Virus record (IMG/VR): IMGVR_UViG_3300045988_148041
Location: 1 to 39,320 of that record
Strand: one strand, 5' to 3'
Length of the DNA: 39,320 nt
Source: a virus
Made by a program: the position numbers and the translations under genes. The notes under the pieces were generated by a model. That model was not told where the DNA came from, made no database searches, and saw nothing but the letters and a program-made list of their open reading frames with translations. Positions within the stretch are counted from its first letter, which is position 1. Every line of letters starts with the position of its first letter. This document shows, piece by piece, positions 1,423-39,320 of this stretch.

Positions 1423-1497
1423 TTTTGCACCTCCTTTTTTAATTCAACATAATAAGTGTTATATTGAATATAGTCCTTTTTTCACCTAAAATTTGGA

Positions 1498-5637: not shown

Positions 5638-5767
5638 CGAATAATTCCTCCTTTGCCATTTCTAAATATTTATGAATTACTTTAAAATCATCTTTGCTAA
5701 CCTCACCACGTTCAACCAAACTGTACAATATTATTTGCATCTTTGCGATTGAATTAAGATTATTCAC
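5579..5767 (-). CDS. hypothetical small protein
   Basis: 62-aa ORF that overlaps the ArpU-like gene start. Confidence 0.3.
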   Translation of the reverse strand: MNNLNSIAKMQIILYSLVERGEVSKDDFKVIHKYLEMAKEELFDGGKGGRNSERLQAQKAKS

Positions 5768-5782
5768 TGTTCACCCTCCGAT

Positions 5783-13363: not shown

Positions 13364-13720
13364 ATGATAAATAGAATCAAAAATTTGCGTAAAGAAAAAG
13401 GTTTATCACAACAAGAGTTTGGTTCTCGAATTGGCGTGTCCCGAAGTCACATAGCTGCATTTGAAAATGGGAACTCTGATATCAGTTCACGCGTGATCCG
13501 TGATATTGCTAATGTATACGAGGTCAACGAAGAATGGTTATTGACAGGTGAAGGGGAGAAATACAAGCCACGCACAGACGATGATGAGTTAGCAATCCTT
13601 ATCGGTAGTTTAATGGCTGAGGATGACGAATTTAAAAAAAGAGTCATCAAAGCAATGTTAAAGCTAGATGACTCAGAATGGCGTTTTGTAAAAAACATCG
13701 TTCAAAAAATTTGTGAATAA
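13364..13720 (+). CDS. XRE-family HTH repressor (CI-like)
   Basis: KEKGLSQQEFGSRIGVSRSHIAAFENGNSDIS is an HTH_3 motif. One of very few plus-strand genes. Divergent from the early operon. Confidence 0.7.
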   Translation: MINRIKNLRKEKGLSQQEFGSRIGVSRSHIAAFENGNSDISSRVIRDIANVYEVNEEWLLTGEGEKYKPRTDDDELAILIGSLMAEDDEFKKRVIKAMLKLDDSEWRFVKNIVQKICE

Positions 13721-13724
13721 ATAA

Positions 13725-13760
13725 AAAAAGCAGAGTAATTAAATACTCCGCTTTTTTTTG
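13725..13760. terminator. bidirectional intrinsic terminator
   Basis: AAAAAGCAGAGTA-ATTAAA-TACTCCGCTTTTTTTT. A-run on one side and T-run on the other, with one mismatch in the stem. Confidence 0.55.
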
Positions 13761-14075
13761 TTCATAACGTAACTCAAAATCATATTAGTGATAAAGTCGA
13801 TAAATTTATCATCGTTAACTTCGTCATTAATAAGTTCAAGTAGTTTCTCTTTCTTATTACTCATAACCCCAAATCATCCTTGCCCTTTTTTTATAATGTT
13901 ATTTTACAAACAATCGTTCGATACGTCTACCCATTTTGACAAAAAATAACATCATTCAACAAGTATTATAATCCTTTTTTTGATAATTTACAACGTATGA
14001 TAGTATATGCTTTTAAAAGTGGTAAATATGTATTATTATTACAATTTGTGCTAGTAATAACACTAGGAGGTAATA

Positions 14076-14398
14076 TGAATCAAATCAGTTATAAAATCAA
14101 AGCGTTGCGTGAGTTGAATAGTTTAAAACAATCAGACTTAGCAAGAGCTTTAAATGTTTCTCAACAGTTGGTATCGAATTGGGAAAGAGGCGTCCGACTT
14201 CCTGATTTGAATACTGTCAATCAAATGACTAAATATTTTAATGTGTCCTTTGATGATTTGTTGAGTAACAAACCAATCAAACCTGCTGTTATGAATGATT
14301 ACATTATTCAACACGAATTACTTCCTAAATTATCCGAAGAGGATAAAGATTTAATTTATCACATGATTACATTCATAGCGACACGGAAGAAGAGTTAA
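14076..14398 (+). CDS. second XRE-family HTH regulator
   Basis: RBS AGGAGG then ATG at 14076. LKQSDLARALNVSQQLVSNWERG is an HTH motif. The ORF-track start at 13997 is probably too far upstream. Confidence 0.6.
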
Positions 14399-14747: not shown

Positions 14748-14838
14748 TTCCAGTTCTCCTTTTTTTCGCGCGCGTGTAGTTAATAATATAAATAAATATA
14801 TTTAACAGCTTATTTATTTAACTACAATATATATTTTT

Positions 14839-14968
14839 GGGTAAACTTTTTAGTTTATAGGGGGTAAACTTTTTAGTTCAGTGGGTTAAACTCAAAAGTT
14901 TAGTGGGTATATACGGGGTTAAACTTTTTAGTTCAGTGGGGGGAGGGTTAAACTTTTTAGTTTAGTGG
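14839..14968. repeat. iteron array: five direct repeats of about 22 bp (plasmid-type origin or iterated protein-binding site)
   Basis: GGGTAAACTTTTTAGTTTATAG (14839), GGGGTAAACTTTTTAGTTCAGTGG (14861), GTTAAACTCAAAAGTTTAGTGGG (14885), GGGGTTAAACTTTTTAGTTCAGTGG (14915), GGGTTAAACTTTTTAGTTTAGTGG (14945). Spacing is 22, 24, 30 and 30 bp. Intergenic, flanked by AT-rich DNA. Confidence 0.7.
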
Positions 14969-14982
14969 GCTTCTCCACAAAA

Positions 14983-15342
14983 TTACTCGAAGTGTTTGCG
15001 GTCAAGCATATCGTACAATAGTGTTTTATAAGCAATCCCTGTTCTGTAGTATGTGAATGTCCCTTTACTATTTTTTTCAAGATGAAATTCTAACACTTTG
15101 CAGTCGCATAATTTTTTAAACCTTCTTCTCAAAGCTATTTTGTTATTTATTTTTAAAATAGGTAAGTCGTCTATGACTTTTTCGTAATTGACCCAATAAT
15201 AGACAGTGTCATTAAAAATTGCTTCTTGCATGCGATCTGTATTTCTAAAGTCAACGAACCAACGTAACAAAATAAGGTCATTCATATCCAACCCATAGGC
15301 TACAGCTATTTTTTGGTGATAATCTAAAATTGATAATTTCAT
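14983..15342 (-). CDS. small putative DNA-binding protein adjacent to the iterons (candidate iteron-binding initiator or regulator)
   Basis: Probable start MKLSILDYHQKIAVAYGLDMNDLILLRWFV after the RBS AGGAGGA. Basic C-terminal half. Function inferred from position only. Confidence 0.35.
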   Translation of the reverse strand: MKLSILDYHQKIAVAYGLDMNDLILLRWFVDFRNTDRMQEAIFNDTVYYWVNYEKVIDDLPILKINNKIALRRRFKKLCDCKVLEFHLEKNSKGTFTYYRTGIAYKTLLYDMLDRKHFE

Positions 15343-15380
15343 ATAAAAAAGTCCTCCTGGTGCTATAAATTTAGTAGCAA

Positions 15381-15563
15381 ACAAAAGGACTCCCACAAAA
15401 GTTTAACCAAAAATAGAATAAAAGGGTTGAAAATTGGTTAAAATGATATTATAATTACAAACGAACTTAATAAAAAGGTCATTAATTACGTTTGTAATTA
15501 ATTTATATTTTCTTTCGCTATTAGACTTCCACTCGGCTGCCAAACTTTGTGGGAGTCTTTTCA
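15381..15563. promoter_or_regulatory. regulatory region with nested inverted repeats
   Basis: AAAGGACTCCCACAAAAGTTT (15383-15403) is the near-reverse complement of AAACTTTGTGGGAGTCTTT (15543-15561). An inner 9-bp inverted repeat TTACAAACG...CGTTTGTAA (15448-15492) sits between them. Confidence 0.4.
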
Positions 15564-15611
15564 TTTACTAAAAAGAATGTTATCAAATATTGTCACAAAT
15601 TACAATAAAAA

Positions 15612-15646
15612 AAATAAGGGTTATCCACAACGGATACCCTTTTTAT
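15612..15646. terminator. bidirectional intrinsic terminator after the FtsK/Replic_Relax operon
   Basis: GGGTTATCC-ACAAC-GGATACCC followed by TTTTTATT. An A-run on the opposite side. Confidence 0.6.
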
Positions 15647-15675
15647 TATGTCCTTTTATTTACCACGTATACTGT

Positions 15676-16278
15676 TTATCTAATAAATGTATACTTCAAG
15701 TTAGAGAAGTTGCTCCAATCAGGTTTTATCCATATGCACCCGATATCAGGTTTTTTCTCGCACACCGATACCAAACACATCGGATGTTGCATTTTATATC
15801 GTCCTGCTTTCAAATCGTTATATAGACGATTATATGCATCTGTGTTAGTGAATGGCTTTGTTAAATCTATCTCAACGAGTGCGCAATAGGTTTCATCACC
15901 GTACTTAAAAGTTACCAACATATCGGGTCTGATATGGTATCTTTCCTCCAACTTCTTATACTCTACCTCGGTTTCATCTAGTATGATTTCGAAACCATCG
16001 ACTTTCATCCTGCTTAAAAAATCAGTCATCATCAATCTATGTTTAGTTTTGGTTGGATTTTTGCCGATGTAGTAAATATAAGATTGCCCCACGTACTCGC
16101 GCACTCTATGGACTTGTTTTTGGTGCTTGATGATCTCTTGCGTTCTCTTGTGCGCAACATTTAATGATGATTTCTCATTACGTGTCCAGTAAATCAATCG
16201 TGAAGCTATTTGTGCATTTAAGATAAAGTTTTTTTCCAAATATCTGATTAACTCTAAATCTCTAGTTGTTAACCCCAT
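15676..16278 (-). CDS. Replic_Relax (replication-relaxation) family protein
   Basis: N-terminal winged helix LTTRDLELIRYLEKNFILNAQIASRLIYW...SLNVAHKRTQEII. C-terminal nuclease-like RPDMLVTF..CALVEIDLTK. Overlaps the upstream FtsK-like gene by 17 nt. Confidence 0.6.
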   Translation of the reverse strand: MGLTTRDLELIRYLEKNFILNAQIASRLIYWTRNEKSSLNVAHKRTQEIIKHQKQVHRVREYVGQSYIYYIGKNPTKTKHRLMMTDFLSRMKVDGFEIILDETEVEYKKLEERYHIRPDMLVTFKYGDETYCALVEIDLTKPFTNTDAYNRLYNDLKAGRYKMQHPMCLVSVCEKKPDIGCIWIKPDWSNFSNLKYTFIR

Positions 16279-17467
16279 AAATTAACACTTCCCCTTTTAA
16301 ATTGCTCATTTTCGGCTCATTTTTAGGCTTTTCGACTTCGGTAGTAGTTTTAACAACAGATGGTTTTTTCGAGGTTCTAACGGTCTTTAAATGGTCTTTA
16401 ATGATGTTTTCAACGTCATCGTCAGATGTTATTAGCGTTTGCCCTTCTTGAATTTGCCCACCTAGACTAAATAATGCCCGTCCTTTAGCTGCTAATTTTT
16501 CTGCTCCCGGTTGGTCTAGTATCACGCTAGAGTTAACAGAATCGACTGTGTGAAAACAAATTCTATTATCGATGTTAGCTTTAATTCGTGAGTCGATGAT
16601 TTTAGAGTCAAAGCGTTGGCTTGTGAAGATATAGAACACTCCAACAGCGCGACTAATGGCTAGCGACTTAATAAGTGTCGTTTTCAAATCTTTGCTTTGA
16701 TCAATCAAAATTGTGAACTCTTCTATGATGACGAATTTCGGTTTTATTTTTTTATCATTATTTTTATTATGATCCAACCAATTTTTGGAGTCTGAGTCGT
16801 TGATTATATTCAATCTATCCTCTATCTCAGTGTAAATTCTATTAATCTCCGTCTCTGCCTTATCAGGTGCAATAGTGAATGAATTGGTTTGTCTAATTCT
16901 TTTGAATGAATTTAATTCAACCCCACCTTTGAAATCGAATAATTCAAATTCACTTTCAGGATAGTTGATTAATATTTGTAAAATTAAACTGGTCAGAAAT
17001 ACCGATTTCCCCCATCCTGTCGCTCCCGCAATTAGAGTGTGGGGCATCGAAACGAAATCAAGTGTAATCCCTTTAAAATCGCCATTCTCTACGCCTATTG
17101 CGGCTGCTACTTGCATCCCAGGTCTATCATTTGTAATGACTTTATCAAAAGGTATGCTCGAAGGTAGTTTTTTTGTTTCTTCTTTTAATTTTATAAAGTA
17201 ATTAAAATTATTATTGATGATCTCAACTTCACTTTTAACGATATTTTCAATTTTCCCTTTTAAATCTTGTAGGTCTTTGAAACTCTTACCGTTGTTTAAT
17301 CCTATTCCGTATGTTTTCGTTTTTCTGTCGTGAAATTTGATGTAACCTATCCCCTCTAGTAGTTGACTCAACGGTGATGACATATCTTTAATCCCTCCAC
17401 CTAATTCCGATAATTTTAAAGCTCCTAACATAACCGTACCAATCGCCCAAGGCATCCACCATACCAT
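16262..17467 (-). CDS. FtsK/SpoIIIE-family membrane-anchored DNA translocase-like ATPase (TcpA/TraB-like)
   Basis: N-terminal TM helix WWMPWAIGTVMLGALKL. Walker A GATGWGKSVFLTSLI. Walker B KFVIIEEF. RBS GGAGG 7 nt before the ATG. Confidence 0.75.
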   Translation of the reverse strand: MVWWMPWAIGTVMLGALKLSELGGGIKDMSSPLSQLLEGIGYIKFHDRKTKTYGIGLNNGKSFKDLQDLKGKIENIVKSEVEIINNNFNYFIKLKEETKKLPSSIPFDKVITNDRPGMQVAAAIGVENGDFKGITLDFVSMPHTLIAGATGWGKSVFLTSLILQILINYPESEFELFDFKGGVELNSFKRIRQTNSFTIAPDKAETEINRIYTEIEDRLNIINDSDSKNWLDHNKNNDKKIKPKFVIIEEFTILIDQSKDLKTTLIKSLAISRAVGVFYIFTSQRFDSKIIDSRIKANIDNRICFHTVDSVNSSVILDQPGAEKLAAKGRALFSLGGQIQEGQTLITSDDDVENIIKDHLKTVRTSKKPSVVKTTTEVEKPKNEPKMSNLKGEVLIYGVNN

Positions 17468-17768: not shown

Positions 17769-18311
17769 TCAATTTCTCGAATTAATTTTTTGGAGTAGTT
17801 GTGATCCGTCTACTAGCTGCACTTTGCTGAGCCTTGCTTCTTGCCTAGCGTCTTCTGTGAACTTAGATGTAGTGACAAAAATCGCTTCGGCGTTGTGAGG
17901 ATGACACGCACCAACTAACTTTTGAACCAAAGGTCTCCCGACAGCATTAGATTGGGCGAATTGTTTGCATTCTACAAAGTAAGTTTTAGTCCCTTTGTAC
18001 ATCACAAGATCTTTACCACCATCACCACTTTTGCGTGTCTGAAGCACGGTGTACCCTTGCGATTTATAGTAATCAGCTACCACACGCTCGAATTGATAGG
18101 GATTGACCTTCATTAAATCGTTCATCGTCATTCTTGAATATGGTTTTTTGAATATATTTTTAAAATCCTCGCCTGATAGATGAATTGCCACTGTCGCTAT
18201 CGCGATGATCAGGAACATCATAATAACAGTAGGATTGAGTATTTTCCCGAAGGTTATGATCGTAAATAAAATTAAAATTGCTTTGACTGTTTTTTTGCTC
18301 ATCAGCATCAC
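17769..18311 (-). CDS. membrane-anchored Mrr-type (PD-(D/E)xK) restriction-endonuclease-domain protein
   Basis: Two N-terminal TM helices (ILILFTIITFG, IMMFLIIAIATVAI). Mrr_cat-like core NPYQFERVVADYYKSQGYTV...GDGGKDLVMY...YFVECKQF. Confidence 0.6.
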   Translation of the reverse strand: MMLMSKKTVKAILILFTIITFGKILNPTVIMMFLIIAIATVAIHLSGEDFKNIFKKPYSRMTMNDLMKVNPYQFERVVADYYKSQGYTVLQTRKSGDGGKDLVMYKGTKTYFVECKQFAQSNAVGRPLVQKLVGACHPHNAEAIFVTTSKFTEDARQEARLSKVQLVDGSQLLQKINSRN

Positions 18312-18375: not shown

Positions 18376-18404
18376 ATAAAAAAAGACTTGGAATAACCAA
18401 GTCT
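18376..18404 (-). terminator. intrinsic terminator of the parMR operon
   Basis: On the minus strand: AGACTTGG-TTATT-CCAAGTCT followed by TTTTTTT. Confidence 0.7.
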
Positions 18405-18618
18405 ACCAGTCTTTTTCTTTAAATAGATCCTTTGTTTCTTGTGGCACATTGAATGCGTCCTCTTTGATGTTGCCACTTACTTTATCAGCTAACGTTGTTA
18501 AAATAAAAGAAGTAAAGTTGCGTTTGTCAGCTTTAGCTGCTTCCTCGATAGCTTGTAACAACGCTTCGTCACCTTCATAAAAAGTGATCGTCTTTTTAGC
18601 AATTATTTTACGCGCCAT
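18403..18618 (-). CDS. parR: ParR-like ribbon-helix-helix partition adaptor
   Basis: 71 aa. Beta-strand KTITFYEGDEAL then helices LQAIEEAAKADKRNFTSFILTTLADKV. Lies immediately downstream of parM. Confidence 0.5.
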   Translation of the reverse strand: MARKIIAKKTITFYEGDEALLQAIEEAAKADKRNFTSFILTTLADKVSGNIKEDAFNVPQETKDLFKEKDW

Positions 18619-18622
18619 ATTA

Positions 18623-19585
18623 TTACCCCTTTTTGATCAATGTGTATTTATAGAATCCTCTTGCATTCGCGATTTGTGCTTCGGGATAAACTATCGCATT
18701 TGAACGTAATTTTATGTGATTTTTAATAGCCAAAGCTCCACCACCAGTATAGATAATTCTGTCATAGTGTGCTAAATTAATCCCACTTCGTCTGATAACA
18801 GTTTCTAAGGCTGATACGAAGTCTGTTTTAACTAAATCTAATTCTTCGGTGAAATCAAATGTTTCGCCGTATTTATGAATAATTGGCGAGATATCATCGC
18901 TCACATCGTTATGTGTAAAATGATAATCAGTCCCTTTGTATTTGTTGTTCATTTCACGAACTAAATCATTTACGATATCCATACAACCAGTGTCGTCACC
19001 TGCTAATTTCTCGACTTGCAACCCATTTGTGGCAAGTATATCCGTAGTTGAGTAACCAATATCAATCACAACGTAATTGAATTTGTTACGGTTGTTAACG
19101 ATTTGCAGTTTTTCATTGAAAACGAAGTCACATAGAGTCCCTAACGGCTCACACGCAACGAAAACATCTTGGATATTGATGACATATTCCTCAACAACAT
19201 CGTCAATTATAACGTTTATTGCATGGCGGCCAGTCAATTTTTTAACAATCTGTTTCTTTAGGTCGATTTTTTCAAAGTCCCTGCAAGGAACTCCAATAGT
19301 TAATGATACATTGCGCTCAGTGATGACCTGAGTAATCGCGATTAATAATTCTAAAAGATATTCTTTGCTTAAATAACGGTCAGAGCTACGTCCACCACTA
19401 CTGATCCCCGTTGTATCTAAAGTATATTGTTTCCCTTCATATTCATAGATTGTCCCAATACCACCTACGATATTAAATTCGCTTCCTGTCAAACGTTTTA
19501 ATTTGTTAGGGTATGTCAACTCTGTGTCATTGGATACAACTTTAATGAAGCCGTTTGCAACCTCTAGTCCTATTTTTTGACTCAT
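18623..19585 (-). CDS. parM: ParM/StbA-family actin-like segregation ATPase
   Basis: Phosphate-1 motif IGLEVANGFIKVV. Phosphate-2 motif VVIDIGYSTTDILA. Adenosine motif YTGGGALAI. Confidence 0.7.
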   Translation of the reverse strand: MSQKIGLEVANGFIKVVSNDTELTYPNKLKRLTGSEFNIVGGIGTIYEYEGKQYTLDTTGISSGGRSSDRYLSKEYLLELLIAITQVITERNVSLTIGVPCRDFEKIDLKKQIVKKLTGRHAINVIIDDVVEEYVINIQDVFVACEPLGTLCDFVFNEKLQIVNNRNKFNYVVIDIGYSTTDILATNGLQVEKLAGDDTGCMDIVNDLVREMNNKYKGTDYHFTHNDVSDDISPIIHKYGETFDFTEELDLVKTDFVSALETVIRRSGINLAHYDRIIYTGGGALAIKNHIKLRSNAIVYPEAQIANARGFYKYTLIKKG

Positions 19586-21304: not shown

Positions 21305-21335
21305 GTATGTAATTAAAATCATAGTTCTAAATATA

Positions 21336-21368: not shown

Positions 21369-22121
21369 TTAGCTATGAAATTTTTTGGTTTCTGATGAAT
21401 ATAAGATAGGATTTTTCGTTAAACCACAAGAATATACTTTATTGCATAATATTGATAAATAATCATCCACTGAACGTTGTCGTGTTATATTAGGTAAAAA
21501 TTGTTTAATTTTACGTTCCATTTGTGAATGATCGTATCCCTCTTTAAAGAATAATCTTGAAAAAGCCGTGATAAAATGGCTTTGCTTGTAGTTTCTAAAT
21601 TCATGGAACGATTCGAGGGCCATAAAAAATAATACCACAGAATCTAATCCATCTAACGACACTGCGCCTGTTCTAAATTCTCGTTTCAGTTGCGGTATAT
21701 TTTTTTCTTGAACGACAGATAATATCTTTAGAAAATCATTAATACTTATATCGAAATCGTTTGTGATTTCTGCTATTTTTAGATACTTCTCTTCTTTTAA
21801 TTCGCAATAGCGGTGAAGATAATCTGCATCATACCAACGTCTTCCACCATTAACATTAGCTCTTATTACGTCATCAATGCTATATCCATTCTCCATAATA
21901 TAATAGACGGGTAATTTCAAATATTCACACGCCTTAAATCTATGTTGACCATCGATAATTTCAAATTTTTCATTTACTGTAATTGGAATGATTAACTGTT
22001 TCTCCTTCATACTCTCAATTATTTGATTAAGATTCGTTGGATTTGTTCTTCTGTTTCCGCCCATGATTTTAAACAATGAGTAGTCGTTTGTTTTCATTAC
22101 ACTTGTGTAAACTTCAATCAT
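21369..22121 (-). CDS. ParB/Sulfiredoxin-like nuclease-domain protein with a DGQHR motif (DndB-like)
   Basis: EIIDGQHRFKACEYLKLPVYYIM. Confidence 0.55.
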   Translation of the reverse strand: MIEVYTSVMKTNDYSLFKIMGGNRRTNPTNLNQIIESMKEKQLIIPITVNEKFEIIDGQHRFKACEYLKLPVYYIMENGYSIDDVIRANVNGGRRWYDADYLHRYCELKEEKYLKIAEITNDFDISINDFLKILSVVQEKNIPQLKREFRTGAVSLDGLDSVVLFFMALESFHEFRNYKQSHFITAFSRLFFKEGYDHSQMERKIKQFLPNITRQRSVDDYLSILCNKVYSCGLTKNPILYSSETKKFHS

Positions 22122-22650
22122 ATTTGTACCCTCCTGTAATATACCACTTTCTATAATCTTTTCTTTTACAATCCTTGCATTGATTCAAGTGACCGTCTTT
22201 CATGCCTTTGTTTTTGTTAAATTCGGACAGCGGTTTAGTTTCTCCACATTTGTTGCATTTTTTTGTTGCTTCTGAAATGGTTGCTTCTGAAATGGTTGCT
22301 TCTGAAATGGTTGCTTCTGAAATGGTTGCTTTCCTTTGGTTATAAGCATCTTTATACTTTTTTGCGCAAAACCTACAATAAGATTTAACGCCACTTTTGC
22401 TTTTTTTGTGTTTATTAAAGTAACTTAAAGGCAAGATTGTTTCGCATTGCGAACAAGTCTTGTAACCAGCAGGAGCTACGTCGTTGATTATCGGCCTTTT
22501 TAAGTTCAATTCACTTGCTTTAGTGTAGATCGATTTAATATCTCTTTCTAAAGCGTTCGATATTTCTTTTGTTGTGAACTCTGAACTTTTATATGCATAA
22601 CGCAAAAAAACAATCTCTTCTTCAGTCCATAATTTTCGCTTTTTTTCCAT
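22114..22650 (-). CDS. zinc-ribbon repeat protein with an ATISE pentapeptide tandem repeat
   Basis: Two CxxC-x(20-25)-CxxC modules (CSQCETILPLSYFNKHKKSKSGVKSYCRFC and CNKCGETKPLSEFNKNKGMKDGHLNQCKDC). N-terminal HTH-like WTEEEIVFL. The ATISE repeat is encoded by a 15-bp tandem repeat. Confidence 0.5.
   Translation of the reverse strand: MEKKRKLWTEEEIVFLRYAYKSSEFTTKEISNALERDIKSIYTKASELNLKRPIINDVAPAGYKTCSQCETILPLSYFNKHKKSKSGVKSYCRFCAKKYKDAYNQRKATISEATISEATISEATISEATKKCNKCGETKPLSEFNKNKGMKDGHLNQCKDCKRKDYRKWYITGGYKYD
22265..22330. repeat. 15-bp tandem repeat (GTTGCTTCTGAAATG), 4.4 copies, inside the CDS
   Basis: Read directly from the sequence. Confidence 0.9.
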
Positions 22651-23083: not shown

Positions 23084-23113
23084 ATAAAAAAAGAGGCAAG
23101 CATAAGCTCGCCT
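23084..23113 (-). terminator. terminator of the lysis cassette
   Basis: On the minus strand: AGGCGAGC-TTAT-GCTTGCCT (one G-U pair) then CTTTTTTT. Confidence 0.6.
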
Positions 23114-23688
23114 TACTCAAAAATTTTATAGTTAATATCTAGTGATAATACCGTGTTATAGTAGCTTGACACGACATACTGAAGATCAGGGCTAGACTTT
23201 TTACACCAAAGCACGTGCGTTGGGTTTAAAGTGCTATCTATACCAGCTTTTAACACCGCATTTGATTTGCTCGTTTGTGGCGTGTAATTAGGGTATTCGA
23301 TATCTGTATCGCACTCAATATGTAAATGTGCTCCTGATGATGCACCTGTATTTCCATAGTAGCCGATACGCGTGTCTTTCGTCACGTTCTGTCCTTGTTT
23401 AACTCGAATTTTATCTAAATGGTAATAACGCATAGCAATGTCTTTAATTGCACCAGTTGGAAGCTCACAATCTTTATACACGATAACGACTACATTACCA
23501 CCTGAAGGATGCCAACCACAATGAGTCACTATTCCGTGTCCACTAGCCCAAATAGTTGTGTCTTTGCGTTTTTCATCCGTACAATCAACTCCGTAATGAG
23601 TATAGCCAAATTCTCTTTTATAAGCTGAGTTCTTGTATCCTGCCGTAACACGCATTGAATTGATAGGTAAAATTAAACGTTGTGACAT
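23113..23688 (-). CDS. M23-family peptidase (endolysin, catalytic domain only)
   Basis: HYGVDCT...GIVTH...GNTGASSGAHLHIECD, with the HxH and HxxxD zinc motifs. Confidence 0.65.
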   Translation of the reverse strand: MSQRLILPINSMRVTAGYKNSAYKREFGYTHYGVDCTDEKRKDTTIWASGHGIVTHCGWHPSGGNVVVIVYKDCELPTGAIKDIAMRYYHLDKIRVKQGQNVTKDTRIGYYGNTGASSGAHLHIECDTDIEYPNYTPQTSKSNAVLKAGIDSTLNPTHVLWCKKSSPDLQYVVSSYYNTVLSLDINYKIFE

Positions 23689-23690
23689 TA

Positions 23691-24068
23691 TTATTCCCCC
23701 TTTGTTTTTTGATTAAAAATTTCTAGCTTTTCAGCCACAATAATAGGCAACTCAACCCCACACTCATGTAAATTTTCTAAGATTGAACCGCCCTCTTTAT
23801 AGATAAATAAAGCCAACGTGAAACCACAGAGCATGTAATTAAGCCCTAATACCACATCAACACCGATAACAAACACGACAGCTACCATTTCTGCAATCCA
23901 ACGCACGATGCCGTCACGCATTTTAGAGCTTTTGTAATTTTGGTTTTTCCACGACTTAAGGATGCCTAATAGCATATCAATGACTTTAATACCTAAATAT
24001 GCGACAACTAATGTCGAAATACTTTGTGGTAATATTGCTAAAATTCCGTATTGTAACATTTTTTTCAC
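23691..24068 (-). CDS. holin (multi-TM, Holin_4_1/TcdE-like)
   Basis: 125 aa with 3-4 hydrophobic helices. Sits immediately upstream of the endolysin. Confidence 0.6.
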   Translation of the reverse strand: MKKMLQYGILAILPQSISTLVVAYLGIKVIDMLLGILKSWKNQNYKSSKMRDGIVRWIAEMVAVVFVIGVDVVLGLNYMLCGFTLALFIYKEGGSILENLHECGVELPIIVAEKLEIFNQKTKGE

Positions 24069-24129
24069 TCCAAATAGTTTAATATTTTTTTAACACACAA
24101 TAAAAGCCACTCCGAAGAGTGACTTTTTA

Positions 24130-25143
24130 TTAAGCTACATTTAGAAATGCTTCAATTAAATCATCAGCATCGCGATCATCATACAACGACACCATGTCTA
24201 ATGACTCCCAATTCACAATCGCTTTGATTAATTCAGGCGGATATCCTGCGCGACCTAACTCTGTACAGAAATTATGGCGTAGACAATGGAAATAAAAACT
24301 CACGTCAAACCAATTTCCAAACGTAACCGCCCACGATTTCAAAGTTTGGGTTTTCAACGGAACCCACTCTTCCGTTTTTTTATCATATTTAACAAATAAA
24401 TGCTGGATTTTATCGGGCACACCTAATCGCTTACGTTCTTCTAACCATAAGTTCAAATAAGGCTCAAATTTATCGATTAAAACGTATCTAGGTATTTGTT
24501 TACCCAACTTTCCTCTGCCCTTTGTACGGAGCTTTTCAGGCGTTTTCCAAAATTTATTCCACTTAACGCAATCGTCTGTGAAATAATTGCACTTGAATTG
24601 GACCAATTCCGATACTCGGCTACCACTAGCCCAGGCTAGAGCGAAAGCACACGCTTTTTGGTATTGTTTTTTCTCTACTAAGTGATCTAAGAATTTTTGG
24701 CACTGCTCATCTGAAAGAACTGTTTTTTCTCGCACATTTTCTCTAGCAGGAGCTTCGATTTTTAAAATAATATTTCTGAAACCTTTCCACTTAGGTTCTT
24801 CATCTAAAAAGTTTTCAATGTATTTACTTAAGCTAGATAACGATGATCTAACGCGTTTAATTCGCGCCGGAGATAACCCTTCACTTAACATATAGCCTTG
24901 GAAATTCAAGTAATCATTTTTCTTAACCTCGCAAAAGTCTTTATTTTGGCACTTATCACGGAACCAACTAAAGAAGATATATAAATCACTTCGATAATTT
25001 GTGACCGTTACAGGGCTTCTATCGACTCCTGTGCAATACATTAAGAAACTGTCAACCAACTGTAAATTTTCAGGATTAATCGTGCTAATGTCCGAACTCG
25101 CTAGCACACGCTTTGTTTTTCTAGTATTTTTTCTTTTACCCAT
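24130..25143 (-). CDS. tyrosine site-specific recombinase (Xer/Cre-like integrase or resolvase)
   Basis: SAM-like N-domain. Catalytic residues present: SGSRVSEL (R), HCLRHNF (H-x-x-R), and the nucleophile in ...MVSLYDD. No extended arm-binding N-terminus. RBS GGAGGG. Confidence 0.8.
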   Translation of the reverse strand: MGKRKNTRKTKRVLASSDISTINPENLQLVDSFLMYCTGVDRSPVTVTNYRSDLYIFFSWFRDKCQNKDFCEVKKNDYLNFQGYMLSEGLSPARIKRVRSSLSSLSKYIENFLDEEPKWKGFRNIILKIEAPARENVREKTVLSDEQCQKFLDHLVEKKQYQKACAFALAWASGSRVSELVQFKCNYFTDDCVKWNKFWKTPEKLRTKGRGKLGKQIPRYVLIDKFEPYLNLWLEERKRLGVPDKIQHLFVKYDKKTEEWVPLKTQTLKSWAVTFGNWFDVSFYFHCLRHNFCTELGRAGYPPELIKAIVNWESLDMVSLYDDRDADDLIEAFLNVA

Positions 25144-25155
25144 AATATCAACCCT

Positions 25156-25197
25156 CCGTACAACGTACTATAGTAAATACTATGATTTGTTGTACGG
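25156..25197. other. nested palindrome next to the recombinase start: candidate recombination core (att, lox or dif-like) or operator
   Basis: CCGTACAAC-[GTACTATAGTAAATACTATGATTT]-GTTGTACGG. 9-bp perfect arms. The inner TACTATAGTA is a 10-bp palindrome. Direct repeat of TACTAT. Confidence 0.45.
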
Positions 25198-25231
25198 AAA
25201 GTTGCCATTAAAATCTATTTTTTAGTAACTT

Positions 25232-28200
25232 TTATTCTACTAATTCGCGAGCATCCATTAATGAGATTAATTCGTCATACTCTTCTTGCGTTAATTGCCC
25301 TGCTTCTAAATAACGTTTTAATTGGTATTCCATTTTTGAACGCTCATAACGCCCACCTAAGATTAATGTTTTTGCTTGTAAAAATCTACTCATAACATCA
25401 GCCTCCTTTAATTTGAATGTAGCCATCATAGGCACATCTAAAACCATTTCAATTTCAAACAATCTAAAGTCAATATCCCATTGATTAGATAATAAATCCA
25501 TGTCACCATCCACACGGTATTGATTTGCTTCAATTAACCCATCTTTTAATGCTTCATTTTCAGATTCTAACGCTTGGATCGTGTTGCGTTGCTGTGCGAT
25601 CGTTGCTTGCACGTCAGTTGGTACTTTAACGGATAGCGTTGGGACTAATGAACCTTCTTCACTACTACATGAGTAATGAGTTGTACCGTCGTATGAATAA
25701 ACAACGTTGTCGCTTAAATCAACTGTTTTATTGACTTCTTGTTCAAGAACGTATCTTACTGTAATCGGATTTTCGGAAAAATACGCCTTTAATTGAGAAA
25801 CATCCATCTGAACTTTATCATTAGAAATAAAAATGACAACATCATTTGTGGAAACATATAAATGTTCTGCATCAAGCGTATAGTTTGCTATTGATTGGAT
25901 TTTATCACATATAGCATTAGAATTGCCTTTTCCTCTGTAAGGAAGGGGTATATAATATCGTGATGTATTTCCCAAGTTTTCACTATATACAATATTTTGA
26001 CTACCATCAATAACAAATTCATGTGTAATTTGTTTCACATTCTTATTAATAATATCTAACGTGTCATATATATTTCCAACACTACCTAAAACTAATTCAC
26101 TTGGAGTAGATAAAATGTTTGATTTAAAGCTCTCGAATGAGGTGGCAACTGGACTTTCTTCGAGTTGTGCGACTTCTAAATCTAAATAAGCACCCCTATT
26201 AAAATTGTACGAACCACTAATATAATCAATCGTTTTATCTTTTTCAGATGTTATAGTAAATAAACTTCCTTGCTCTACGTTATTCGCAGTTCTTGTTCCA
26301 TCAGTATAATAAAAATTAAAATTAACTTTCATAGAATTGTTTTCATCATCACGATAAATTTTCCCTGTAAAGGTGTATCGAGTATTTTCTTTAAACTTAC
26401 TGTGATATTTGAAATTAGTCCCACCATCAGTATAACGGTAAACAGATTTACCATTAAAAGTTGCAAATTCACCACCACTTAATTTTGTTTTATCAAACAA
26501 ATTCTTCCCAGTAGTCGTTAAAACAGGCATTCTAACGCTCTGCATACCCTCAAAATAAGGAATGTCCCAATTTTCCATACCTTCTTGATATTGTAATATC
26601 GTTACTGCCCTACTTAAATCGTCCTCACTTGTCCAACCATCACTAAATTTACATAAAAACTGATAGAAGAATCTATTATCTTCAAGTTCAACTTTAAGAT
26701 AACTATCACCTTCTAAATAAAGAATGTCCGCGTAAATAGTTGGTTCTATTTGGTAAACACCTATCGTAATCCTGTGTGGTGTATTGTTTTTAATGAAATA
26801 GATACCTTCAGAATACAATGAACTAACTGTATTATTAGCCCATATTTTTTCATCATCAACTTCTTGTCCTCTTATTTTATAGTGATTCACTAACGTATTA
26901 CCCTTTAAAATCGCACTTTTAGTGTGCCCCTCAATGGAATTGTTAGCTGTGATGTGTTGACCTTCGTAATCTAAGTAATTAAATTCACCGATAGCCGTTT
27001 TTACAGCATAATCAACATTAGCATTAGCCGCTTGGCGCATATTCTCATGAGTATTCCCCATGTAGTCTATACGCATATCTGCAACCTCTTCCGCGCTACC
27101 TTCTAAAATTTCTAACGCTGCATCTGTGCGTTTTTCGATATCTGAGACTACCTGTTCACCACGAGTTAGGAATTCTTCAGTTCGTTGCTCAATCTCGATA
27201 ACCGTTTGTTCTCCGCGTGTTAGAAACTCTTCTACTTTAGCATCGCGTGTTGCTTCTTTTTGCACGCGTAATTCTTCATTGGCAATGCGTGTATTTTCAT
27301 TTGTGATACGCTTTGACTCGTTATCTTTTCTTAATTCCTCGTTTTGATTGCGAGTTAATTCTGCTTGGTTATATGCTGTGTAACGTTCTTTTTCAGCCGT
27401 TGCATATGTTTCTTGACGAATTGTTTCAGCATCGCCAAAATCTGCATTTCGTTGAGTTTCACAATCTTCATATAACTTGTTGCGATTAGCTTCTGCTTTG
27501 GTATAGCTTTGATCGCGTAATAACTCAGCGTTAACGCGTTGCTGTTCTGCTACTTGACGTGCATCTTCAGCTTTTTGGCGTTCTTTTTCTTTTTCATTAA
27601 AACGAGTATATGTAGCTTCACGGTTATCTTCCTGAGCTTGGCGATTAGCTTCTGCATTGATACGATTTTCTTCGTTATTCACGCGTTCTAATTCCTGAAT
27701 TAAGCGATTATTTTCAGATGCTAAACGAATAATTTCATTTTTCTCAAACTCACCGAATTTATTAATACGTGCATTTTCATTAGCTACGCGTTTATTTTCT
27801 TGTAAGTTGCGCACACCTTCATTTGCTTCAAACGTTTCATTGCGGTTTTGTTCTGCTAAGATGCGCGAATTTTCATTTGAAATGCGTGTTTGCTCTGCGA
27901 TTTTGCGGTTTGTCTCATTGACCATGCGAGTTTCTTCATTCGCTTGGCGTTCTTCTTCCGATGGAACCGCAGTCTCGTATAATGCGATGCGCATTTCTTC
28001 ATTAACTTGGCGGATCGCTTCGGCATTTGCACGCGCCGTTTCTTTAGTGACACGAACTAATTCGTCCTGTTTGCGTTTCGCTTCCTCAATTTTAATATCC
28101 TCGTTTGTCGCGACTACTTCGGTATTGATTTGTTCTATTTGTTGCTCATAGTCTCTTAAGTTAGCAACCACCACATCTAAATCATCTAATGTGTCAATTT

Positions 28201-28576
28201 TGCGAATACTTTCTACAATGTTACCTTCTAACGATTTGCCGACAACGAATGAAAAAATACAAGTGCTTACGCGCCCATTATCTTTAACCACGAGTTGCAT
28301 ATCTAACACACCATCTTTAGTCGCGAATTGTTCATCCAACGCAACTTTAACCGTGTGTTCTGTTAACGATAAAACCTCGAAGCCTTCCGTTTGACGAACT
28401 TCATTTTTATCCATTTTAACCCCAATTAATTCGAAAGTCGGTTGTTCCCATGCCTCACCAACATCACCGTTAGTTAGCACTTTAATTTCCAATTCAACAT
28501 TATCTAGCATGTTAAATTTTCCGAAGCACTGGTTATTAAGTTGTGTATCAACGTTATTTTTAATATACTGTTTCAT
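25232..28576 (-). CDS. tail fibre / baseplate upper protein (BppU-like N-terminus, long coiled-coil, C-terminal receptor-binding region)
   Basis: 1114 aa. N-terminus resembles BppU_N. The central region is a heptad-like run rich in NE/R/A residues (NENTRIANEELR...). C-terminal beta-rich domain. Confidence 0.6.
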   Translation of the reverse strand: MKQYIKNNVDTQLNNQCFGKFNMLDNVELEIKVLTNGDVGEAWEQPTFELIGVKMDKNEVRQTEGFEVLSLTEHTVKVALDEQFATKDGVLDMQLVVKDNGRVSTCIFSFVVGKSLEGNIVESIRKIDTLDDLDVVVANLRDYEQQIEQINTEVVATNEDIKIEEAKRKQDELVRVTKETARANAEAIRQVNEEMRIALYETAVPSEEERQANEETRMVNETNRKIAEQTRISNENSRILAEQNRNETFEANEGVRNLQENKRVANENARINKFGEFEKNEIIRLASENNRLIQELERVNNEENRINAEANRQAQEDNREATYTRFNEKEKERQKAEDARQVAEQQRVNAELLRDQSYTKAEANRNKLYEDCETQRNADFGDAETIRQETYATAEKERYTAYNQAELTRNQNEELRKDNESKRITNENTRIANEELRVQKEATRDAKVEEFLTRGEQTVIEIEQRTEEFLTRGEQVVSDIEKRTDAALEILEGSAEEVADMRIDYMGNTHENMRQAANANVDYAVKTAIGEFNYLDYEGQHITANNSIEGHTKSAILKGNTLVNHYKIRGQEVDDEKIWANNTVSSLYSEGIYFIKNNTPHRITIGVYQIEPTIYADILYLEGDSYLKVELEDNRFFYQFLCKFSDGWTSEDDLSRAVTILQYQEGMENWDIPYFEGMQSVRMPVLTTTGKNLFDKTKLSGGEFATFNGKSVYRYTDGGTNFKYHSKFKENTRYTFTGKIYRDDENNSMKVNFNFYYTDGTRTANNVEQGSLFTITSEKDKTIDYISGSYNFNRGAYLDLEVAQLEESPVATSFESFKSNILSTPSELVLGSVGNIYDTLDIINKNVKQITHEFVIDGSQNIVYSENLGNTSRYYIPLPYRGKGNSNAICDKIQSIANYTLDAEHLYVSTNDVVIFISNDKVQMDVSQLKAYFSENPITVRYVLEQEVNKTVDLSDNVVYSYDGTTHYSCSSEEGSLVPTLSVKVPTDVQATIAQQRNTIQALESENEALKDGLIEANQYRVDGDMDLLSNQWDIDFRLFEIEMVLDVPMMATFKLKEADVMSRFLQAKTLILGGRYERSKMEYQLKRYLEAGQLTQEEYDELISLMDARELVE

Positions 28577-35638: not shown

Positions 35639-36277
35639 TTAAGCGTTAGCAATTTTAACAACTTTAGTTTTGTCACGTAAGTAAGCTGCATAGTGTTTAT
35701 CAACTGCATAAACTGTTGTTTTAGCTAAGATATCACGATCAGACTCAACGCGAGTTTCACGTTTTAACTCAATTCCTAATGCACCTGGTTTAACAATGTA
35801 TGCTTGTCCTGCAGGCACACGGTTAGACACTACCACTGCTGCATTGTAGATATAACCAATTGTCCCACCAATAGCTCCATTTACGTTTGTAGCTGGTTCG
35901 AATTCTGCACCTTTGCGGATTGCAGTGTATTCAGCTGGGTTGATGAATACTTGCATAGCTTCATCTAAATCTTCACCGAATAAACCGATAGCATCAGCAA
36001 TCGAAGCTGCAGTGACTGTAGCAGTATGTTTTAAAGTCGCACCTTCTAAAGCAGTGTAGCAATCTTTTTCGATTTTAACTGCTAAAGATAATAATAATTG
36101 GTCTGCGATTTCTCCAACTGGATTCCCGTGACCTGATAAGATAGCTTCATCTGTAATTTCAACTGATTTAGCTGCTTTTTTAACTGTAACTGTAGACTCA
36201 TCAGAGTTTAATACTACTGGAACATCAGCTACACCTTCTGCTAAATCTTGAGCATCTCCGATATCATTAATATTCAA
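35639..36277 (-). CDS. major capsid protein, exon 2 (C-terminal about 210 aa)
   Basis: Begins ..NINDIGDAQDLAEGVADVP... and continues a siphovirus HK97-fold capsid sequence. No independent ATG or RBS. The ORF is open from the intron boundary. Confidence 0.65.
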   Translation of the reverse strand: MNINDIGDAQDLAEGVADVPVVLNSDESTVTVKKAAKSVEITDEAILSGHGNPVGEIADQLLLSLAVKIEKDCYTALEGATLKHTATVTAASIADAIGLFGEDLDEAMQVFINPAEYTAIRKGAEFEPATNVNGAIGGTIGYIYNAAVVVSNRVPAGQAYIVKPGALGIELKRETRVESDRDILAKTTVYAVDKHYAAYLRDKTKVVKIANA

Positions 36278-37503
36278 CGAAACTCGCTACATTTCGCCCG
36301 TTCTCTTATGAACTGCTATACATTACTGCATAGATTAGACTATATCACCAACTCTTTTCAGAGTGCCTCCCATTTCCATCCGCTTGGATGTACGTCATTT
36401 GACTAGTCGTTGAACCTTATTAATCTTTCAAGAAGTTTTCCAACTCATTCGTTATTTTATTTGTTCGCAACCACCAATAGGGTATTCTAAGCAACGGAAT
36501 TTGCTTGTTTTTACAGTACTCGTTTTTAATAGCATCTCTTCTTAAAATCCCGGTTCTATCGCCCTTTCCCCAATTTTTAGCATTAGTGAAATGTTGCGAA
36601 CCATCGAACTCTATTAGTTTTAATGTCCCGTTAACGAAAACTGCAAAATCAAACTTCAACAACGCTTTGTCCTTGCAATCTTCGAACGTGTATTGTGGTT
36701 GAAAAACGTATTGTTTTGAAGTTAAAAAATCAAAAATAAATAACTCACCTTTTGAATACATACATTTTGGGCACCTTATTTCCTTCAGTAGATCTTTAGG
36801 GATGACATCCCATTCATAGCCACATTTATGTCGTACTAAAATTTTAGTGCGATTATTAATGTATTCTCCCAACACTTCATACTCTCCTGGGTATTTTTTT
36901 GCCAGTGCCTGTATAAATAATTGTGTGTCTTTCATTCCGTGACATATTGGGCAGCCACTACCACGAACCACGTTCCCTGCAATAGCTTCGTATTCGTGTC
37001 CACAAACGTTGTTTTTAATCTTTATTTTATGCCTTAACCCTAAATATTCCCCGATAACTGTAACATTTACATTGTTGTCGGATAGCCTTTTTTGGTAGGT
37101 TTCTAAGCTGTTAACCTTTGTCGCACTGATCCTTTTGGCTCTGCATTTTGAACATAGCTGACCATTCAATAGTTTAATCGGCGCTTTCTCGTCTATATGC
37201 CCACAATTTGAATATTTAACAGCAACTTTGTTCTTGTTCCCTGTGTAATTGGTGAGTATTTCTACTTTATCTCCATAAAGTTCTTTAACTTCATCTAAAA
37301 ATTCTCCATGAGTTTTTCTTCTTGTCATCAAACCACTCCTTGTTGTTTATATTATACCAACTTTAGACAATATAATTCAACATTGGAACGGTTAAAGATT
37401 AATCTTGGCTGCTGATTGTCCTTAATTGCTCATGTTAAGGAGTTTCCAGCAATTAGAGAGGTTTCCATTCAAGCGTCACCACTTGACGGCGCAATCGTTA
37501 CGA
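36278..37503 (-). mobile_element. group I intron (IA-like, phage type) interrupting the major capsid gene, carrying a homing-endonuclease ORF
   Basis: Conserved core elements are readable on the minus strand. P-like AATTGCTGGAAAC (plus 37442-37454). Q-like AATCAGCAGCC (plus 37407-37417). R GGTTCAACGACTAGTC (plus 36401-36417). S GGTGATATAGTCTAA (plus 36334-36350), with GACTA/TAGTC P7 pairing. The last intron nucleotide G precedes the exon 2 codon AAT. Exon 1 ends ..GTATGG. Confidence 0.7.
36420..37331 (-). CDS. intron-encoded homing endonuclease: three zinc-ribbon repeats plus a C-terminal DUF559/Vsr-like PD-(D/E)xK nuclease domain
   Basis: Three repeats CGHIDEKAPIKLLNGQLCSKC, CGHEYEAIAGNVVRGSGCPIC, CGYEWDVIPKDLLKEIRCPKC. 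C-terminus FDFAVFVNGTLKLIEFDGSQHF...ILRRDAIKNEYC..PLLRIPYW. RBS AAGGAGTGG. Confidence 0.6.
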   Translation of the reverse strand: MMTRRKTHGEFLDEVKELYGDKVEILTNYTGNKNKVAVKYSNCGHIDEKAPIKLLNGQLCSKCRAKRISATKVNSLETYQKRLSDNNVNVTVIGEYLGLRHKIKIKNNVCGHEYEAIAGNVVRGSGCPICHGMKDTQLFIQALAKKYPGEYEVLGEYINNRTKILVRHKCGYEWDVIPKDLLKEIRCPKCMYSKGELFIFDFLTSKQYVFQPQYTFEDCKDKALLKFDFAVFVNGTLKLIEFDGSQHFTNAKNWGKGDRTGILRRDAIKNEYCKNKQIPLLRIPYWWLRTNKITNELENFLKD

Positions 37504-37650
37504 CCATACCGGAACTGTTAATGTGTTACCTGGACGCCCTTGTAATTCAGTACCAATCACTGCTAAAGGTGATAATTTGATTTTGTCCACTAATTTAGCG
37601 TCGATGTACTGTCCGACTACCTGTGGGTTTAATAAGTTAGATAATTTAGT
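37498..37650 (-). CDS. major capsid protein, exon 1 (N-terminal 50 aa)
   Basis: RBS GGAGG then ATG. MATTKLSNLLNPQVVGQYIDAKLVDKIKLSPLAVIGTELQGRPGNTLTVPVW is the typical capsid N-terminus. The in-frame stop appears only after the intron junction. Confidence 0.65.
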   Translation of the reverse strand, partial: TKLSNLLNPQVVGQYIDAKLVDKIKLSPLAVIGTELQGRPGNTLTVPVWS

Positions 37651-37676
37651 TGTTGCCATAATTTAAAACCTCCGTT

Positions 37677-39239: not shown

Positions 39240-39320
39240 ATCAATTTCTTTTGCTCGTTTTTCCCAATATACAGGGGAAGAAAGCTTCCCCCAATATTTC
39301 TCATCTTTAAGGTTGATAGA

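Follow-up and report, generated by a model that had tools for sequence, protein, structure and literature searches.

The IMG/VR virus record IMGVR_UViG_3300045988_148041 (39,320 bp; analyzed from position 1 to 39,320 and referred to here as the window) encodes one tyrosine recombinase, and immediately 5′ of the ribosome-binding site of its gene lies a striking palindrome. Is this palindrome the DNA site of the enzyme, and what does the enzyme do for the phage? The initial annotation, made from the sequence alone, read the palindrome as a candidate lox, dif, or att core and likened the pair to the multimer-resolution systems of phage-plasmids. Our comparison of the window with its relatives leads to a different reading of the palindrome: most likely, it acts in the mRNA as a leader hairpin that sequesters the Shine-Dalgarno (SD) sequence and would thereby keep recombinase translation low. 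Multimer resolution, in contrast, is still the best-supported function that we can infer for the enzyme from context and precedent.

As DNA, the element spans 42 bp (25156 to 25197, minus strand) and consists of 9-bp perfect inverted arms (CCGTACAAC, 25156 to 25164; GTTGTACGG, 25189 to 25197) around a 24-bp spacer with an ATAGTA/TACTAT inner repeat. Its position and arms are exactly as first annotated. The nested palindrome described within it holds in part: the internal 10-bp sequence TACTATAGTA is present at 25166 to 25175 but lies off-center, and the repeat concentric with the outer arms is ATAGTA (25170 to 25175)-AA-TACTAT (25178 to 25183). A longer imperfect dyad of 68 bp (25143 to 25210, minus strand; 33-nt arms, 76% complementary) is the longest inverted repeat in the window, and the SD sequence (CCCTCC on the plus strand, 25152 to 25157) overlaps one arm of the element. 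The window holds 57 short-range pairs of 9-bp inverted repeats, so bare arms are not rare; the element stands above chance because its fold is extreme (z = −6.7) and because its pairing is kept in relatives through compensatory changes.

Folded as sense-strand RNA, the leader has an unbroken outer helix of 16 bp (CAACUUUCCGUACAAC/GUUGUACGGAGGGUUG) with a small inner stem above it (−27.2 kcal/mol), and none of 200 shuffled sequences was as stable. The 42-bp element is the core of this hairpin, and the SD sequence of the recombinase gene (GGAGGG, 25152 to 25157, minus strand) lies inside its 3′ arm. The helix takes in the whole SD sequence together with two G-U pairs, whereas the antisense helix is interrupted at the G-U positions. 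Compared across 57 genes of the window, the recombinase leader had the lowest folding energy and an SD pairing probability of 0.91 (median, 0.51). Within the clade of relatives of at least 59% identity, the SD sequence was paired at 0.66 to 0.99 in all distinct leaders; the lone value of 0.51, for contig L138, refers to a start codon whose annotated position falls within the hairpin. Among 84 distinct leaders of distant family members, median SD pairing was 0.42, and many of these leaders simply carry an intrinsic terminator before a free SD sequence.

The arms of the hairpin differ from lineage to lineage. Contig L135 (99% identity; other tail fiber and holin) carries the element unchanged. 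In L002 (83%), the 9-bp repeat (TACAACGTA/TACGTTGTA) has moved 3 bp inwards on each side, which alters the half-site spacing by 6 bp. The arms are CCCACATTG/CAATGTGGG in L139 to L141 (65%, same genomic slot), CAACACCC/GGGTGTTG in the L005 group (61%, other slot), and TTAATCACCC/GGGTGTTAA in L116 (59%). Five lineages thus have five complementary arm sequences (CCGTACAAC, TACAACGTA, CCCACATTG, CAACACCC, and TTAATCACCC), and what they all share is a single feature, a 3′ arm that covers the SD sequence. RNAalifold found 11 consensus pairs across three lineages, 5 of which show double compensatory changes. The element is not a terminator, since it lacks a U-tract (AUAUUAUG follows the stem), and it was not called by the scan that called an intrinsic terminator at 24127 to 24102. 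Rfam 15 gave no match at E ≤ 1 in 23900 to 25500 and none at gathering score across the window.

Could the palindrome nevertheless be the DNA target of the recombinase, a lox/dif-like resolution site or attP core immediately 5′ of the gene? No dyad in the genome is longer than this one, which adjoins the recombinase gene, and cognate sites beside recombinase genes are common, as in XerS/difSL and TnpI/IRS. The window element can be drawn as 11-6-11 (7/11 symmetric) or as 13-8-13 (9/13 symmetric; 11/13 in L002), the latter with an asymmetric spacer, GTATTTAC. L002 has the same inner 24 bp, and three other lineages with differing stems (leaders of L005 to L012, L116, and L138 to L141) keep an apical motif, GCATATGATRTAT. 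However, relatives do not keep the 13-8-13 architecture. In the 83% relative, each of the perfect outer arms has shifted by 3 bp, and in the 59 to 67% relatives, unrelated complementary sequences stand in their place; by inspection, the inner and outer repeats are non-concentric in L005-type leaders, and L139-type leaders are without a lox/dif-like inner dyad. Sisters with 61% identical enzymes share no leader arm sequence with the window, yet they share conserved non-coding DNA elsewhere. A hairpin tolerates a 6-bp change in spacing, non-concentric repeats, and a lost inner dyad, whereas a dimeric DNA site should not, which favors the RNA reading, as does the fact that SD occlusion is the common denominator across lineages. 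In addition, no att junction was found, with all four contigs (window, L001, L002, and L135) unbroken across the element, and no second half-site copy above chance occurs in the window. Taken together, these data make it unlikely that the palindrome is the recombination site.

A partial inverted half-site copy at 21316 to 21335 (16/20) is matched or surpassed by ten other pairs within those 10 kb, and a 27-mer of the element was absent from IMG/VR. No match to a host-type dif was found in the window within 3 mismatches. By eye, the loop of L005 resembles Escherichia coli dif (GCATA..ATGTAT..TATGTTA); its spacing is off by 2 + 2 nt, and the likeness is superficial. Inversion of tail-fiber segments in the manner of a shufflon was also considered and rejected, as no inverted repeats bracket any tail-fiber segment.

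The dyad directly precedes the recombinase gene and might also be read as a DNA operator, perhaps overlapping a weak promoter, at which the recombinase or some other protein controls the gene; the initial annotation gave an autoregulatory operator as an alternative. Hexamers resembling a −10 element occur in the apical region (TATAGT and TAGTAT; TATGAT in other lineages), and the apical motif is kept while the stems differ. In contig L085, moreover, the recombinase gene and its leader come after a terminator, so that a promoter of their own would be needed. However, a consensus scan found no sigma-70-type promoter in the leader, the arms vary in sequence and spacing between close relatives, and the G-U-type asymmetries favor the RNA level. 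We therefore give operator function only a small probability.

Several observations nonetheless weigh against the SD-sequestering hairpin. Compensatory changes are expected for a DNA palindrome as well as for an RNA hairpin. Evidence that tells the strands apart (G-U pairs and inclusion of the SD sequence) is suggestive and comes from about five lineages. The inner 24 bp shared with L002, together with the 11-6-11 and 13-8-13 drawings, make a dual DNA and RNA role possible in the lineage of the window. Finally, the conserved apical motif is unexplained by SD occlusion and hints at sequence-specific recognition of the loop.

The recombinase gene (24130 to 25143, minus strand) encodes a protein of 337 amino acids (aa). 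Alignment and structure prediction indicate that it is a catalytically complete two-domain tyrosine recombinase of the Xer/Cre type without an arm-binding domain. Its open reading frame (ORF) matched Phage_integrase (PF00589; E = 8.7 × 10−14) and Phage_int_SAM_1 in Pfam, both above cutoffs, and integrase families in PHROG. Each of R176, K208, H286, R289, W312, and Y321 is unchanged across 27 aligned homologues, and all six coincide with the catalytic residues of XerH in a pairwise alignment, in agreement with the annotated full set of catalytic residues. In the AlphaFold model (predicted local distance difference test [pLDDT] of 88), a helical core-binding domain begins at about residue 24 and is joined to a catalytic domain. 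The sole disordered part ahead of the core-binding domain is a basic tail (residues 1 to 17), so the N-terminal arm-type DNA-binding domain of lambda-type (heterobivalent) integrases is absent, as the initial annotation had stated. Foldseek gave a probability of 1.0 for XerA, Cre, XerH, IntI, Tn1549 Int, and the lambda Int core; the Tn1549 and lambda matches are to arm-less Int constructs, and all of these folds match about equally well. A profile search of Protein Data Bank (PDB) sequences placed XerA, XerH, and XerD on top, weakly (E of 5 × 10−10 to 5 × 10−6), with Tn1549 Int next. XerH was the only solved structure matched over its full length, and no sequence similarity to Cre was found at E ≤ 0.001 in this search. 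Judging from these models, assignment of the enzyme to a single subfamily does not hold, as structure comparison does not discriminate.

The gene lies where it was first placed, between a tail-fiber gene (25232 to 28576) and a holin gene (23691 to 24068), and about 10 kb from the repressor genes at 13364 to 14398 rather than beside them. Alignment with sister phages in which the tail-fiber/holin junction is empty bounds, to the base, an inserted cassette of 1,091 bp (24124 to 25214, minus strand) that comprises the leader, the hairpin, and the recombinase ORF. In L142 and L143, the empty site reads AAAAAATAG followed directly by GTCACTC. The empty junction in sisters runs GTAGATTAA TTAAATAAAAAATAG and then GTCACTCattGAGTGGCctttt toward the holin gene; in the window, the same junction runs GTAGAATAA AAGTTACTAAAAAATAG, then ATTTTAATGG and the recombinase gene, then TAATAAAAA and, past the insert, GTCACTCttcgGAGTGGCtttt toward the holin gene. 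The terminator scan called an intrinsic terminator at 24102 to 24127 (minus strand), with the stem GTCACTC/GAGTGGC and a T-run, and the same stem stands directly behind the tail-fiber gene in L142, L143, and L145. By this alignment, the terminator is the tail-fiber gene's own, pushed downstream by the insert, which lies upstream of it.

The cassette occupies a different slot in the sister genomes of the window, eight IMG/VR contigs of 35 to 42 kb (L005 to L012). These sisters share TerS (85% identity), TerL (86%), portal (73%), and minor head protein (57%) with the window; in L142, L143, and L145 (same sister contigs), ParM (71%), a 71-aa protein (53%), an M23 lysin (71%), a Rep-like protein (66%), and a repressor (about 50%) are shared in the same order. 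Their recombinase, 61% identical to that of the window, is placed between TerL and portal, a slot that in the window is an empty spacer of 75 bp (1423 to 1497, minus strand); reciprocally, their tail-fiber/holin junction is empty. Though the slot differs, each sister genome has exactly one recombinase copy as well as ParM, which argues that the enzyme is useful to the phage and tied to a plasmid-type lifestyle.

Further traces of rearrangement are seen around both slots. The 5′ boundary motif of the cassette, (A)TTTTAAT(A)GG..CAAC, is alike in the two slots (window, 25201 to 25214; L005, 5923 to 5945; L145, tail-fiber/holin slot), and in L145 a solo remnant of the 5′ part of the leader is left at the tail-fiber/holin slot. 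In L007 (7053 to 7900) and L085, a DNA methyltransferase gene lies between the recombinase cassette and portal, bounded by the same ATTAAAAT linker. L009 has an extra non-coding insert of about 357 bp (5635 to 5990) between the TerL stop codon and the cassette that is absent in the other sister contigs. In this phage group, modules seem to be shuffled often at conserved intergenic linkers.

Such movement raises the question of whether the 1.1-kb cassette is an autonomous, recombinase-only mobile element that hops between late-operon linkers with the terminal palindrome, as a duplex or as a folded single strand like integron attC or CTX attP, for its own attachment site. This idea would account for the slot differences, the shared 5′ boundary motif, and the solo leader remnant in L145. 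However, the 3′ ends of the cassette are unlike between slots, which speaks against a precise transposon-like element, and we consider the idea very improbable. Recombination at the linkers is another way in which the cassette may have moved. Two candidate junction sequences were also rejected. The dyad TAAAA-N6-TTTTA, present at both cassette junctions, was considered as a minimal core site (7 observed versus 0.74 expected), but it is found at nearly every gene junction of the sister phages, where it makes up the stop codon + SD + TTTTA + ATG junctions, and it also occurs in terminators. Short A-rich direct repeats around the cassette (TTAAAATT; TAAAAA) were not reproducible as target duplications in the L139 lineage, and the 3′ ends vary by slot.

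The genome around the cassette bears on the function of the enzyme. Its map comes from PHROG and Pfam searches that covered essentially every ORF. The two ends of the window (1 to 99 and 39222 to 39320) are an exact direct repeat of 99 bp, the signature of a circular assembly, corresponding to a genome of about 39,221 bp. The minus strand carries TerS, TerL, and portal genes (3178 to 109), wrapping to head, tail, tape-measure, and tail-fiber genes (39239 to 25232). The last of these, on the same strand upstream of the cassette, encodes a tail-fiber/virion structural protein of 1114 aa (phrog_23208) whose C terminus is 51 to 63% identical in sister phages. After the tail-fiber genes come, in order, the recombinase, holin (minus strand), M23 endolysin (23113 to 23688), a small Arc-like gene, an HNH-type gene, and a ParB-N-like gene. 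A four-gene plus-strand block is next, followed by ParM/StbA and the 71-aa protein, an Mrr-like gene, an FtsK/SpoIIIE-like gene, a 200-aa protein, a Rep-like 137-aa protein with five iteron-like repeats, and two plus-strand repressors. The early genes encode a replication initiator, DnaC-like protein, Erf, RusA, and SSB. No second recombinase was found by Pfam/PHROG scans of ORFs or by a hidden Markov model (HMM) of the family on all six frames of the window.

Within this map, the ParM/StbA actin-like partition gene (18623 to 19585) and the downstream 71-aa gene (18403 to 18618) form a minus-strand unit (18403 to 19585). The 71-aa protein has a weak ribbon-helix-helix (RHH)-type match and is a possible RHH adaptor, and the ParM homologues are located on 45- to 66-kb plasmids of Bacillus and Paenibacillus. 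The five iteron-like repeats (14838 to 14969) are about 23 bp each (GGGTTAAACTTTTTAGTTyAGTGGG), adjoin the Rep-like gene (14983 to 15396), and are conserved in L143 and L144; the array is probably a plasmid-type origin or partition site. The FtsK/SpoIIIE-like ATPase gene of the maintenance module (16262 to 17467, minus strand) was identified by Pfam/PHROG, and the two helix-turn-helix repressor-type genes of the lysogeny switch (13364 to 14398, plus strand) have no adjacent integrase. The window thus combines a full phage gene set (terminase, portal, head, tail, and lysis genes) with plasmid partition and replication genes on one replicon. The phage is a circular temperate siphovirus with a plasmid-type maintenance module and no integrase and is therefore most likely a phage-plasmid, in line with the lifestyle initially suggested. 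The circular assembly and the lack of att junctions are in keeping with an extrachromosomal prophage; against a plasmid state, a circular contig may also come from a circularly permuted virion or from replicating DNA. The best portal match to any deposited phage was 38% (Clostridium sporogenes phages), and no nucleotide near matches to the window were found in phage and plasmid collections. The GC content of the window is 36.5%, and metagenome-assembled genome (MAG) labels of relatives are Clostridia.

Homologues of the recombinase occur on phages and plasmids. One with 47% identity is on the C. botulinum phage-plasmid p1BKT015925 (c-st type), and one with 28% identity is on Bacillus subtilis pBS32; both lie at the end of a late/lysis block, that of pBS32 likewise after a tail/lysin block. 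Homologues of about 26% identity are found in large plate-isolated phages of Lactococcus (949 group), Bacillus (Tsamsa and relatives), Enterococcus, and Staphylococcus, some of which are regarded as virulent. Metagenomic homologues are numerous; for the exact protein, there was no record in the contig index, and a single-protein scan of viral contigs gave no result. Phage genes stand on both sides of the recombinase gene in every context examined: it lies within the lysis module in L003 and L004, between head and tail genes in L099, behind an unrelated tail-fiber gene in L116, and between a YonO-type RNA polymerase plus tRNA array and TerL in L115 and L127. Contigs L115, L127, and L111 to L113 (up to 128 to 225 kb), from large phages, have in this order a YonO-like single-subunit RNA polymerase (Pfam RdRP match, L115 scanned), tRNA arrays, the recombinase family, and TerL. 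tRNA genes 5′ of about 11 distant homologues were considered as attL but proved to be phage tRNA arrays, with the YonO-like RNA polymerase upstream and TerL downstream.

Is the enzyme then a lysogeny integrase, by which the phage integrates into the host chromosome with attP at the element or elsewhere? No other recombinase was found in this temperate-looking genome with repressors, the enzyme matches "integrase" PHROGs, its structure fits the Tn1549 Int and lambda Int cores equally well, and actin-like proteins are also found in integrating prophages (CGP3, cited in PMC8026635). However, the enzyme has no arm-binding domain and no Xis-like neighbor, and plasmids as well as large phages of virulent type carry homologues. 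Phage genes adjoin the gene on both sides in all contexts examined (tail/lysis, TerL/portal, head/tail, and RNA polymerase-tRNAs/TerL); neither attL/attR next to the gene nor hybrid junctions were found, the four contigs being intact. The tRNA genes 5′ of distant homologues are not attL, the window is a circular assembly, and the cassette switches slot between sister genomes. With no att junction, no second copy of the element, and no host-type dif-like sequence in the window, chromosomal integration of the phage is unlikely, and an integrase role for this enzyme seems quite improbable to us.

Multimer resolution has the best support from context and precedent. The recombinase gene and its leader of about 70 nt form a 1.1-kb portable cassette between the tail-fiber stop codon and the tail-fiber terminator. 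Because the cassette sits upstream of that terminator, the recombinase would be transcribed as a 3′ extension of the late tail-fiber message. The 3′ arm of the leader hairpin would then hide the SD sequence and keep translation low for a gene that rides on abundant late transcripts. The enzyme itself most likely resolves multimers of the circular plasmid or replicative form, probably at a DNA site other than the leader element. In Firmicute plasmid prophages, a ParM-like protein, a small adaptor, and Xer-like recombinases "believed" to resolve dimers occur together (PMC8026635), and a general statement on dimer resolution by such recombinases has been made (PMC7969092). The multimer-resolution-like system of the initial annotation is retained in part: the arm-less enzyme, the phage-plasmid-like genome (ParM/StbA with its small protein, iterons with the Rep-like gene, FtsK-like gene, circular assembly, and single recombinase), the homologues on p1BKT015925 and pBS32, and literature precedent are consistent with it, whereas the palindrome as its site is not upheld.

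The alternative that must be weighed most carefully here is a lytic-cycle function, such as processing of replication or packaging intermediates, as may apply to Tyrovirus gp50 and the Lactococcus 949 group. Insertion upstream of the tail-fiber terminator makes the gene part of the late transcription unit, a position that fits a lytic role at least as well as a plasmid role. The TerL/portal position in sister phages and the distant homologues in large plate-isolated phages, some regarded as virulent, point the same way. The authors of PMC9703825 make the same argument from late position for gp50. Moreover, resolution would require that the gene be expressed during lysogeny, in the plasmid state, and a leader in which the scan detected no promoter does not explain such expression; this and the late position both count against multimer resolution. 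On the other hand, no known mechanism needs a site-specific recombinase late in infection by a pac-type phage, an SD-occluding hairpin would suppress translation just when late transcripts abound, and the regular presence of ParM in the sister genomes that have the recombinase is more in keeping with a plasmid role. We regard a lytic function as rather unlikely, though worth keeping in view. From the enzyme class and architecture, genome context, cassette boundaries, and conserved SD-occluding pairing observed here, the whole account (phage-plasmid, portable cassette, SD-occluding hairpin, and multimer resolution) has, in our estimation, about an even chance of being correct.

Where a resolution site might lie instead was considered for the most conserved non-coding DNA common to the window and its sisters, namely, the iteron array and about 200 bp within a block at 15397 to 15675. 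This block is 82 to 88% identical to sister phages, while the flanking proteins share only 38 to 41% and 66% aa identity. Within it lie a hairpin (GACTCCCAC...GTGGAAGTC) and a palindrome with 12-bp arms (TAATTACAAACG...CGTTTGTAATTA) that shows compensatory changes in L142 (ACTAGCG/CGCTAGT). The palindrome (15441 to 15511) was rejected as the true resolution site, as its arms are about 25 bp apart. The block may serve as an origin, a nick site, or a copy-control RNA; a role as origin or in copy control is more likely than one as resolution site. One inverted iteron copy lies at 15397 to 15415, across the Rep-like gene from the five direct repeats.

Elsewhere in the genome, an HNH "intron-encoded nuclease"-type ORF (36420 to 37331) lies between a 53-aa ORF (37498 to 37659) and the major-head-protein ORF (35639 to 36277), which covers only positions 54 to 271 of its PHROG profile. 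The non-coding DNA around the HNH ORF is 88 to 90% identical to L005, where the arrangement is the same. The region from 35639 to 37659 may be an intron-split capsid gene; Rfam gave no group I/II intron match there at gathering score. An Mrr_cat restriction-endonuclease-like gene (17769 to 18311) lies between the ParM operon and the FtsK-like gene, and several free-standing HNH-type genes (among them 4329 to 4952 and 22114 to 22650) are present; the genome is rich in selfish or defense-type nucleases.

These results have consequences for annotation. Xer-like recombinases in Firmicute phages are routinely labeled "integrase," which leads to wrong lifestyle calls (integrating versus plasmid prophage) and wrong safety calls in phage therapy. 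The sister genomes provide a comparative data set in which one recombinase per genome is retained with a ParM module while its cassette moves between late-operon slots and takes an RBS (ribosome-binding site)-occluding hairpin along. They also advise caution: a striking palindrome beside a recombinase gene need not be its site, and the hairpin after the stop codon is here the terminator of a neighboring gene. If the resolution role is true and the real site is found, the enzyme could, speculatively, become a compact Cre-like tool for low-GC Gram-positive bacteria.

By analogy, the recombinase and its phage-plasmid would belong to a class already described in Firmicute plasmid prophages; the additions made here are the cassette boundaries, the slot switching, and the conserved SD-occluding hairpin. 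Like vB_BtS_B83 (host genus Bacillus), phiCD38-2 (C. difficile), and c-st (C. botulinum) (Piligrimova et al. 2021, PMC8026635), the window has a temperate genome of siphovirus size, a ParM-like protein with a small downstream protein, and one Xer-like recombinase without a classical integrase module, for which dimer resolution is assumed. It differs in that the recombinase lies in the late operon rather than in the maintenance module, and its plasmid state is read from genes alone. Tyrovirus gp50 and the "integrase" of the Lactococcus 949 group belong to the same distant protein family (full-length matches of about 26% in Tsamsa and the 949 group; Tsamsa has three recombinases, and the match is not tied to a particular one). 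Their genes likewise lie among late/structural genes, with function unknown and co-transcription with late genes probable (PMC9703825). These phages differ in size (125 to 170 kb), and some have three recombinases. The site proposed for them, an 11-6-11 repeat, directly follows the stop codon, whereas here the only post-stop hairpin is an ordinary terminator that predates the insert.

Cre/loxP of P1 offers another single arm-less two-domain recombinase in a phage-plasmid with headful-type packaging genes, and Cre is among the best fold matches of the window enzyme. As in Cre, the fifth catalytic position is taken by Trp (W312). The cre gene has its own promoters and lies about 0.4 kb from loxP, whereas the gene described here is a late-operon insert, and no 13-8-13 site, which in a Cre/loxP-type system has two inverted 13-bp elements bound by the recombinase and an asymmetric 8-bp spacer between them, is conserved across its relatives. 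XerS/difSL and XerH/difH are also single-enzyme Xer-type systems, and the difSL site lies just upstream of the xerS gene. Xer enzymes resolve dimers at dif-type sites of 28 to 31 bp, as a rule with FtsK in control, and these two systems act at the chromosome terminus with FtsK; the window does have an FtsK-like gene, but the upstream element is not conserved as a DNA site. The recombinase leader matches no Rfam family; it resembles the SD-sequestering leader hairpins of bacteria and phages, with which it shares a stable stem, an SD sequence in the 3′ arm, compensatory changes, and G-U pairs on the sense strand.

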